Assembly (NCBI RefSeq): GCF_000027125.1
Contig: NC_017626.1
DNA length: 64,000 nt
Strand: one strand, 5' to 3'
Source of the DNA: Escherichia coli 042
GTDB lineage: Bacteria; Pseudomonadota; Gammaproteobacteria; Enterobacterales; Enterobacteriaceae
Made by a program: the position numbers. Positions 51,301 to 54,300 of this stretch are shown here, in pieces (positions within the stretch are counted from its first letter, which is position 1; each line of letters starts with the position of its first letter).

Positions 51301-54300
51301 TGCCAGAGCCAGTAAAATGGCCATGATAATTCCCGGAACGACCACCAGCATGATGCCAATCTGTACTAAAAGGGTAGTCAGAAAAATCAGAATAAATAAC
51401 TTTGGCAATATCGGCGCACTGGCACCAATAGCTCGCAGCGCACTGACTCTCTGACCCGCAGACACCAGCTGGATAATTAATATTACGCCTCCGGCGAGAA
51501 TGGCGTTACCGATTAATCCTGAAAAAGTGGACGCCGCTGAAGCCTGCAGCAAAATTTGTTGCTGTTCCGGTGACATATTCTGAACCAGGTCGAACAACCC
51601 ACTACTGCCGCTAACGGGCACGCCGTCATTGAGCTGCGCAAGCTGTGCATCACTGGGTGAGAAAACATGCCCTAACACCACTGTGATAAACGCACATAGC
51701 AACGATACCAACAGAATGGTCATAAATTGATTACGGAAGAAATTTCCGGTGTCACGGTATACGGACTGCGCCGTGATAGACATGCACTCTCCTTGAGTTT
51801 TATGCAGGTGTTAATTAGCGGGCAATTGTACCCTGGTTAAGCCTCGGGTGGCAGCATCAGGTCTTGTATGGAAAAGCATATCTTTGTAAAGCGGAGGTAA
51901 TTGCTGGCCTTCAGGCGTGGGCAAACCGCGGCAAGTGGCGAACGAGTTAATATTTGCGTAGCGAAAATATTTAAAAATTGATTTAAATCACGTTAACCAG
52001 GATTCTCAATGCAACTTCTAAATTAATCCAGATCAATAAAGGGTGAATTATCATATGTAATGTGATCTATGTAGGATCATTTGTTACTCCAATGTAGGTA
52101 TATTCGTCACGTTTTTATAACCATAACGACGGAGCGGATATGAAAAAGTTAACAGTGGCGGCTTTGGCAGTAACAACTCTTCTCTCTGGCAGTGCCTTTG
52201 CGCATGAAGCAGGCGAATTTTTTATGCGTGCAGGTTCTGCAACCGTACGTCCAACAGAAGGTGCTGGTGGTACGTTAGGAAGTCTGGGTGGATTCAGCGT
52301 GACCAATAACACGCAACTGGGCCTGACGTTTACTTATATGGCGACCGATAACATTGGTGTGGAATTGCTGGCAGCGACGCCGTTCCGCCATAAGATCGGC
52401 ACCCGGGCGACCGGCGATATTGCAACCGTTCATCATCTGCCGCCAACACTGATGGCGCAGTGGTATTTTGGTGATGCCAGCAGCAAATTCCGTCCTTACG
52501 TTGGGGCAGGTATTAACTACACCACCTTCTTTGATAATGGATTTAACGATCATGGCAAAGAGGCGGGGCTTTCCGATCTCAGTCTGAAAGATTCCTGGGG
52601 AGCTGCCGGGCAGGTGGGGGTTGATTATCTGATTAACCGTGACTGGTTGGTTAACATGTCAGTGTGGTACATGGATATCGATACCACGGCTAAGTACAAA
52701 TCTGGTGTTACTACCGTAAAAGACTCGGTACGACTGGATCCGTGGGTGTTTATGTTCTCCGCAGGATATCGTTTTTAATTTTCTCTGCAAAACCTCTGCA
52801 AAACCCCTCTGCAAAACTGGTCATCAAATGACCAGTTTTTTCCATTCCTTACCGCGTGCGTCGTTGTAAATATCGGTCATTTTTTGATTCGAATGGCCTA
52901 GCAAAATTTTGGTATCAACCCCCTGCTCTCTGAACAATCGCTCTGATAAAGATCTCTGCTCATGGAAAGAGGGAGGGGTGCCATTAGCACGCCAGTTGTA
53001 ATCCACAGAATCCCGGGCTTTTTTAAATGCAACGGTTAATGTTGCTGGCTTAACCATCCCGCCGCGCTTAGCTGTCCCTTTCGCGTGATGGTGGTGCAAT
53101 AGCCACGGACTAAGAACGCAATCGCGGCAGGATGACACCACATCATCCAGGGTGAGATTTAATTTATCGCAACGCAGAGCCAGAGGGATGGCAATCCGGG
53201 TTCCTGTTTTTTGCTGTTCGACATGAAGATAACCATCCCGGATATCCGAAAATTGCATTTTGCAAATATCTGAAAGGCGCTGGCCTGTCATCAGTGCCAG
53301 CAGCATACCGCGCTGTAAAAAGTAACCATCCTTTTCCGCTGCGTTATAAATCATCATCCACTCATCAAAAGTCAGTCGCTGTCTTGATATCCGCACCTGC
53401 GGTTTTTTTGCCGATTCTGCAGGGTTAAAGCCTGGCGGGACATCGCCCGTTTGCTGAGCTTCCCGGAAAACATCGATCAGTACTTTCCTGAAAATTTGTC
53501 CCATTCTGTTATGTCCTCTGGCCTTGTACTCTTCCAGTACTGATACCACATCTTTTACGGTTATGGCATCTAACGGTCTGGTGCCAAAACGTTCATCAAA
53601 TACCCTGAGAGGGGCCGCTTTCTGTTTCAGCGTGTTGAGTTTGATCTCGCCGTTTTCATATCTTTCCTGTTGAATTTTTCTGTAATTATTCAGAAAAATG
53701 GTAACGGTTGATGAACCGCCGGTATCACTAATAATTTTCTCCTGCAGACTGAGCATTTGTTCCATTTGCTGCCGGGCAAGACGGCTGTTCGCTTCTGCTG
53801 CAATAGTTTCTGCCAGTTTCTGGTCAATACTGCCGAGACCGTGATTTTTGCCTGTTATGGGATGCCTGTAACGCCAGTAAACTTTGTTATTTCTTTTGTC
53901 AAAATACGGAGATAATCCCGGAACATCGGTTTTATATTTTCGCGGGCGCGCCATCTTCCAGTATCCTCTTCAAAGCAGGGTGATCTGTGGCGATCACCTC
54001 CGGCTTGTTTACCATTCCGACAAAGCGAGCTTGCGGATCCACTCGCCAGCGTCTCCCAACTTTTTTGGGGAGAGGAAATATCATTCCGGCTTTAGCGTAT
54101 TTACTTAACGTACTCGGAGTAGGGACCGGTTCACTGAATTCCTCTTTTGCCCACTCAGTGAGCAGAATAAGTCTTGCCATGAGCGTCGTTCGCTAATCAT
54201 GGTCGCCGCCACTATAGCTGGTGGGCAACGACCGGGGTTGAACATTAAAAATCAGCCTGATTCGGGATCAGTTTTTGCCAGATAACTGAAACGTATTTTG

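Follow-up and report, generated by a model that had tools for sequence, protein, structure and literature searches.

The DNA directly downstream of ompW in Escherichia coli 042 is entirely of phage origin, and the core of the attachment site that joins prophage to chromosome lies upstream of it, inside the ompW coding sequence. We analyzed a window of 64 kb in which the interval 52779-52845, which begins immediately after the ompW stop codon, holds three short direct repeats and a hairpin that overlaps the end of the integrase gene (int). The three repeats are probably P'1-P'3, the arm-type sites recognized by the N-terminal domain of a lambda-type integrase (Int), a reading to which we give a probability of roughly three in four on the strength of sequence comparisons. 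The interval would accordingly belong to attL as the core-distal portion of its phage P' arm and not as the place of crossover.

Within the window, tonB, yciA, yciB and yciC are followed by ompW, and int, an excisionase gene (xis) and a phage exonuclease gene lie downstream of the interval. A search for yciE, yciF and yciG in the 64-kb window found none of the three. The first-pass annotation of this DNA had correctly recognized that a prophage starts at the ompW locus and that phage genes take the place of these chromosomal genes. It had also located the junction directly after the ompW stop, with the attL core likely in 52779-52845; on such a view, the repeats or the hairpin would be part of the crossover site. 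This placement would fit the start of phage genes right past the interval and the lack of any relation to K-12 beyond the stop. Alignment with a prophage-free ompW locus, the check that had been proposed for it, puts the junction elsewhere. With the K-12 W3110 ompW locus as the empty-site reference, the plus strand of the window is nearly identical to K-12 from the ompW start up to the core (52140-52659; 514 of 520 nt, 98.8%) and fully identical over the core itself (52660-52687; 28 of 28). Identity then falls to 23 of 47 nt (49%) at 52688-52734, returns to 42 of 44 over the last 44 nt of ompW (52735-52778), and is at chance level over the 70 nt past the stop (52779-52848; 28 of 70). Because identity drops at 52688, the break with the chromosome falls at 52687/52688, inside ompW and not after its stop. 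The repeats are absent from the empty K-12 site.

Comparison of the four kinds of attachment site leads to the same position. Only one sequence is common to attB (K-12), attL (the window), attR and the attP-like site formed where two tandem prophages meet, namely the plus-strand sequence CAGTGTGGTACATGGATATCGATACCAC, whose attL copy is the core at 52660-52687, 89-118 nt ahead of the ompW stop. It is precisely at the edges of this sequence that the flanks change partners. For attR we used strains TR01 and 700462, in both of which a native, K-12-like ompW 3' fragment stands at the far prophage end and is followed by yciE, yciF, yciG and trpA, so that the displaced end of the gene is found beside its normal downstream neighbors. 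When attR served as the query, the matches to thousands of empty-site genomes began exactly at the first base of the core. Among complete genomes, strain 700462 comes closest to the window, with 99.4% identity over 11.4 kb. The TR01 junction is 100% identical to the window, but its prophage body is only ~95.6% identical, and TR01 was therefore used for comparison only. O157:H7 LSU61 and TR01 contain a second copy of the block that starts at 52660 and includes the ompW end, the repeats, the hairpin and int; the left flank of this copy is quite different, being the end of another prophage.

These comparisons decide against a core within 52779-52845, and we rejected that placement as extremely improbable. 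Neither attB nor the bacterial side of attR contains any of the interval, divergence from K-12 begins within ompW, the segment from core to int moves with the phage to other flanks and takes the last 119 nt of ompW along, and the published att of this prophage family coincides with 52660-52780. The first-pass annotation had also called for a search for matching sequence at the far prophage end. At that end, relatives carry the core and the 9-mer CTGCAAAAC of the repeats; the interval 52779-52845 does not recur on the bacterial side of attR.

The prophage belongs to the PPompW family of lambda-like prophages inserted in ompW, and its att has already been published. In their account of the PPompW prophages of STEC and EPEC (GenBank LC567818-LC567841), Nakamura et al. 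(2021, PLoS Pathog; PMC8112680) describe integration into ompW with a 121-bp attL and attR that are 81% identical to E. coli ompW, confirmation of att by attP PCR and sequencing on excised circles induced with mitomycin C, and tandem PPompW copies in O157:H7, an arrangement that we see as well. Their 121-bp imperfect att corresponds to 52660-52780 of the window, and a 121-bp repeat_region starting at the core is annotated at both ends of O145:H28 PPompW prophages (e.g., LC567822). The window prophage shares the integrase gene, the ompW insertion and the 121-bp imperfect att duplication with this family and is 100% identical to it over 52660-53300. The remainder is a mosaic relative, with 95-97% identity across the first 4-6 kb and less farther in. 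A search of the window for the 21-bp attB-in-PP_1 that Nakamura et al. describe found no match.

In the att description of that paper (PMC8112680), the whole 121 bp is treated as att, and neither a 28-bp core nor arm-site repeats are singled out; a literature search combining ompW with arm-type sites returned nothing relevant. Since only the first 28 of the 121 bp are identical between phage and host, strand exchange must, judging from this alignment, fall within 52660-52687, where we infer the exact cleavage positions to lie. Two hexamers in inverted orientation within the core, GTGGTA and TACCAC, are candidates for core-type Int sites. The arm-site assignment is a small addition of a familiar kind to the published att. 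Sites of this kind have already been described for lambda Int and for phage 21 at icd, as has this att itself, and no new question is opened.

Integration at this position leaves ompW with a hybrid coding sequence. The rebuilt gene (52140-52778, plus strand, with its TAA stop at 52776-52778) has 212 codons, as in K-12, and is bacterial to 52659 and phage-derived from 52688. The phage-borne replacement at 52688-52780 (plus strand) consists of the last 30 codons, the stop and 2 nt, and is 71% identical to K-12, with 65 of the 91 nt of ompW after the core matching. It is identical to the copy that lies beside int at the prophage-prophage junction with the different left flank. The crossover thus falls within an open reading frame whose frame is restored by phage sequence, and because the phage supplies the last 30 codons, the lysogen keeps an ompW of 212 codons.

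Four T's separate the ompW TAA from the repeats, which are three exact direct copies of the 11-nt unit CTCTGCAAAAC at 52783-52793, 52794-52804 and 52807-52817 on the plus strand. Three tandem repeats directly after the ompW stop had been noted in the first-pass annotation, with a unit of 12 bp; the unit is in fact 11 nt long. As copies 1 and 2 abut and a CC spacer precedes copy 3, the start-to-start spacing is 11 and 13 rather than a regular 12. Copy 3 overlaps the hairpin stem and ends 6 nt ahead of the int stop. Counted from the first core base, the 9-mer CTGCAAAAC stands at +125, +136 and +149. With one mismatch allowed, CTCTGCAAAAC occurs at no other place in the 64-kb window.

Short tandem units are prone to slip, and slippage during replication, or a local duplication, might have left such an array in non-coding phage DNA without any function. 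Copy number does vary in one strain, 2013C-4830, where two copies only are present in a decayed prophage. That prophage, however, has an int that is frameshifted and cut by IS600. In the alignment of occupied ompW sites, the array is kept where the flanks differ, and 20AR0192 and 88-3493, from a lineage with a different replacement ompW end, keep three CTGCAAAAC copies while the spacer bases have changed. Slippage would also have to accommodate three copies at 11/13 spacing, which diverged lineages share with a Providencia phage whose motif is different, together with the recurrence of CTGCAAAAC at a fixed position, at the edge of homology, in four lineages of the opposite arm. We regard this explanation as quite improbable. 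The possibility raised in the first-pass annotation that the array is a remnant of repeated integration and excision is not supported either, as copy number and spacing are conserved across diverged prophages and in phages with other targets. From this pattern of conservation, the repeats are very probably functional.

The integrase encoded beside the array is of the type that would use arm sites. The int gene (52824-53954, minus strand) encodes a 376-aa homologue of lambda Int that looks intact and matches a PHROG integrase family. Its domains are Arm-DNA-bind_1 (PF09003; E = 1.6e-21), PF22022 and Phage_integrase (PF00589), so that the N-terminal arm-DNA-binding, core-binding and catalytic domains of a heterobivalent integrase are all present. 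The protein matches the lambda Int structures 1z1g and 5j0n at E ~1e-55 over nearly its full length (residues 12-354 of lambda Int), and the TGQR, KTG, HExRS, GH and Y motifs are conserved in the alignment, with the catalytic residues aligned. The adjacent gene, xis (53932-54180, minus strand), overlaps the int start and encodes an 82-aa excisionase (PHROG 629; E = 3.7e-35); in related genomes it is annotated as an excisionase. An excisionase gene next to int is what a lambda-type site has.

Further evidence comes from the P arm, on the far side of the core, which was taken from relatives, the nearest of them 99.4% identical, the far end of the window prophage itself lying outside the window. 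This arm has one copy of CTGCAAAAC, at position -128 (or -127) relative to the first core base, in the orientation of the P' copies and 136-144 nt from the core center; the P-arm site reads TTCTGCAAAAC, at -130 from the core. Four lineages of the arm carry it: the first in TR01 prophage 1, the O145 PPompW, SRCC1675 and 97_3250; the second in TR01 prophage 2 and strain 700462; the third in p11A and SUISSEKPC3NDM5, where, unlike in the other lineages, the neighbors are Rha and Ash family regulators; and the fourth in P-EibA of ECOR-9. The four are mutually unrelated further out, and their likeness starts at CTGCAAAAC. The chance of encountering CTGCAAAAC in a shuffled 300-nt arm is ~0.2% per arm. 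In one lineage, the P-arm copy is followed at -101 by a perfect match to the IHF consensus WATCAANNNNTTR (site AATCAATCAGTTA), and in the P-arm lineage nearest the window the IHF-like site has one mismatch. Between core and array in the P' arm, a search tolerating one mismatch turned up no IHF consensus, and an inverted, P2-like copy of CTGCAAAAC was likewise sought without success. The missing IHF match, the single P-arm copy and the mismatch in the nearest lineage weigh against the arm-site reading. At the level of sequence, then, arm-type repeats unlike the core stand in both arms of attP, three in P' and one in P.

The P-arm copy, the lambda-type Int, and similar arrays in phage 21 and a Providencia phage together lead us to read the repeats as P'-arm integrase sites. 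Arm-type sites had been one of the possibilities raised in the first-pass annotation, and it is the best supported of them, given CTGCAAAAC in the P arm, the arm-binding domain of Int and the conservation of the array. Int would bind the repeats through that domain.

Comparison with lambda shows both the strength and the limits of this assignment. Lambda has a homologous Int with an arm-binding domain, Xis encoded upstream of int, and three adjacent direct arm sites beside the int stop; in the lambda record, the three P' sites follow one another without a gap, and the last extends into the stop. Lambda P1 (AGGTCACTAA, at the site annotated as 'int 1') is 134-143 nt distant from the center of the overlap, where the P-arm copy here lies 136-144 nt from the core center. 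It is oriented as P'1 and followed by the H1 IHF consensus, comparable to the perfect IHF site after the P-arm copy in one lineage. In lambda, however, the core is intergenic and integration rebuilds no gene, the arm motif is AGGTCACTAT-like and unlike CTGCAAAAC, and the P arm has two sites rather than one; neither an inverted P2-like site nor an H'-like IHF site was found here. The P' array also begins ~53 nt from the core center in lambda versus ~108 nt here, with a coding segment between, a difference that counts against the arm-site reading.

Phage 21 offers a closer parallel in layout. There too, a lambda-family Int recombines within a protein-coding gene, for which the phage brings a substitute 3' end, and in the phage 21 record the replacement icd end is followed by a hairpin, three tandem copies of TTCCCCAAAAC and then the int stop. 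The target gene and core are different, the motif is CCCCAAAAC rather than CTGCAAAAC, and the hairpin precedes the repeats in phage 21, whereas here it comes after them and overlaps the int stop. For the integration of phage 21 and e14 into icd, repeated dodecamers have reportedly been proposed as arm sites, and the large size of the phage 21 attP is said to have been attributed to the icd replacement segment. Element e14 in K-12 was considered as a further example and dropped, its int not being beside icd at that end.

The Providencia phage PSTCR8lys (MW057859) extends the comparison to another host. Its Int is 51% identical over the full length, and immediately ahead of the int stop there are three tandem CCCCAAAAY-type units whose starts are likewise 11 and 13 nt apart. 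At 2-3 positions the motif is different, and no hairpin covers the int stop. A copy of the PSTCR8lys motif in the P arm was sought within ~680 nt upstream of its array and was not found, which counts against the arm-site reading.

Between the array and the body of int lies the hairpin, with arms AAAACTGGTCAT (52813-52824) and ATGACCAGTTTT (52828-52839), a 3-nt loop and a T run to 52841, assigned to neither strand. Its stem, CTGGTCAT/ATGACCAG, is extendable to 12 bp and is followed by T6. As RNA it folds at -17 kcal/mol (z = -5.3), and none of 200 shuffles folds as well. A pattern scan for terminators did not report the hairpin at 52813-52841, a miss that probably reflects the ability of the stem to continue into the T run; folding showed the hairpin clearly. 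As the first-pass annotation had stated, the hairpin contains the integrase stop: the TGA at 52826-52824 lies in the loop and at the edge of the stem, and the last Int residues are encoded by the right arm and the T run. A stable stem-loop that closes a transcription unit and leads directly into a U run has the features of an intrinsic terminator; the hairpin likely serves as such for the rebuilt ompW on the plus strand and may act, more weakly, for int on the minus strand. It is not, however, the native ompW terminator that it had been taken for, as K-12 carries a different hairpin after ompW, GACCCCGTA...TACGGGGTC. Because the DNA from 52688 onward is phage-borne, the "ompW terminator" is supplied by the phage. 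The hairpin is present in all aligned occupied sites.

The position of the array, within the 3' untranslated region of both transcripts, raises another possibility, namely that the repeats function otherwise, in binding excisionase, Fis or another regulator, or in RNA stability or termination at the convergent 3' ends of ompW and int. Repeats 1 and 2 could form a weak second hairpin on the minus strand, and the Xis sites of lambda are, as a matter of general knowledge, direct repeats too. A role in RNA would nevertheless leave unexplained the copy at -128, which lies across the core in a different transcription unit, and the lambda Xis sites are in the P arm, not beside int. The location of the array beside the int stop fits the lambda P'1-P'3 sites and the phage 21 array, and we think such other functions unlikely.

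With the repeats read as P'1-P'3, the features of the locus can be assembled into a single proposal. A lambda-type tyrosine integrase targeting ompW would carry out strand exchange within the 28-bp core at 52660-52687, and the native last 30 codons of ompW would be moved to the far end of a prophage of ~55 kb, while the phage replacement at 52688-52778 would keep ompW at 212 codons. Past the replacement stop, the three CTCTGCAAAAC copies would be held by the N-terminal domain of Int, and the single P1-like copy, ~143 nt away on the far side of the core, may let Int bridge arms and core in the intasome. The hairpin and T run, overlapping the int stop, are predicted to end the rebuilt ompW transcript.

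Replacement of the ompW 3' end may have consequences beyond preservation of the gene. The rebuilt OmpW differs from that of K-12 by 7 substitutions, all in residues 185-194, and the strand-coding tail is almost unchanged; in another prophage lineage, a variant of the OmpW end is 5 residues longer. From general outer-membrane-protein topology, we take residues 185-194 to be the turn between the last two beta-strands, in extracellular loop 4. OmpW is described as the receptor for colicin S4 (PMC2649078) and, in Serratia, as a phage receptor (PMC10132071). The replacement could therefore amount to lysogenic conversion of the OmpW surface and not a neutral patch, an idea suggested by the clustering of the substitutions that we hold to be unlikely. 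If it is true, PPompW-type phages might swap the receptor loop for colicin S4 or OmpW-dependent phages, shielding the lysogen.

The left prophage boundary is best annotated at 52660-52687, inside ompW and ~100 nt upstream of where it had first been placed. The ompW-int junction is present in 1,715 of the 5,159 records with a match, and phage DNA makes up the last 30 "ompW" codons and "its" terminator in roughly one in three complete E. coli genomes. For the PPompW prophages, whose members in EHEC and EPEC encode type III effectors, assignment of the repeats as arm-type sites would provide a testable map of attP.

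Arrays of three tandem CCCCAAAAC-like units lie immediately ahead of the int stop codon in both phage 21 (AF017626; comparison locus L021, 1-330) and the Providencia phage PSTCR8lys (L011, 190-260), with unit spacings of 12 and 13 in the former and 11 and 13 in the latter. The arm motifs within this Int subfamily look related, following the pattern YYCNNCAAAAY. An occupied ompW site in strain 2013C-4830 (L014, 241-500) has two of the three repeats, with one 11-nt unit absent, and the integrase gene there is both frameshifted and truncated by IS600.

The hairpin at 52813-52841, which overlaps the int stop codon, was not listed by a consensus terminator scan of window 52000-54400. 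The simple pattern thus gave a false negative here, probably because extension of the stem can take up part of the T run, so that not enough T's remain behind it.

The ompW locus of E. coli O157:H7 TR01 (NZ_CP033605.1) holds two PPompW-type prophages in tandem. Their junction, at about 1737650 (L004, 14440-14900), has the core flanked by the first prophage's P arm and the second prophage's P' arm, which makes it an attP-like site still located in the chromosome. The ompW attR sites of p11A (L007) and SUISSEKPC3NDM5 (L008) come from a prophage with other neighboring genes, in which regulators of the Rha and Ash families adjoin the P arm; from the repeat motif inward, this P arm is common with other lineages. 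The p11A core differs at four positions, and the ompW fragment in p11A is followed directly by trpA, so that yciE, yciF, and yciG are absent there.

Among the complete E. coli genomes compared, none matched window 52500-63900 exactly, the closest being strain 700462 at 99.4%. Compared with the PPompW prophages of O157 and O145, the prophage has a mosaic early region, in which blocks show 83 to 97% identity.

A different replacement version of ompW, five residues longer, is present in strains 20AR0192 and 88-3493. The phage-borne replacement end studied here (52688-52734) introduces seven substitutions into OmpW residues 185 to 194 (N185K, L188S, G190V, A191T, Q192T, Q193V, and H194K), all within the turn that leads into the final beta-strand from the one before it; that final strand itself is preserved. 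The end that the prophage supplies may alter a surface loop of OmpW, a colicin and phage receptor.
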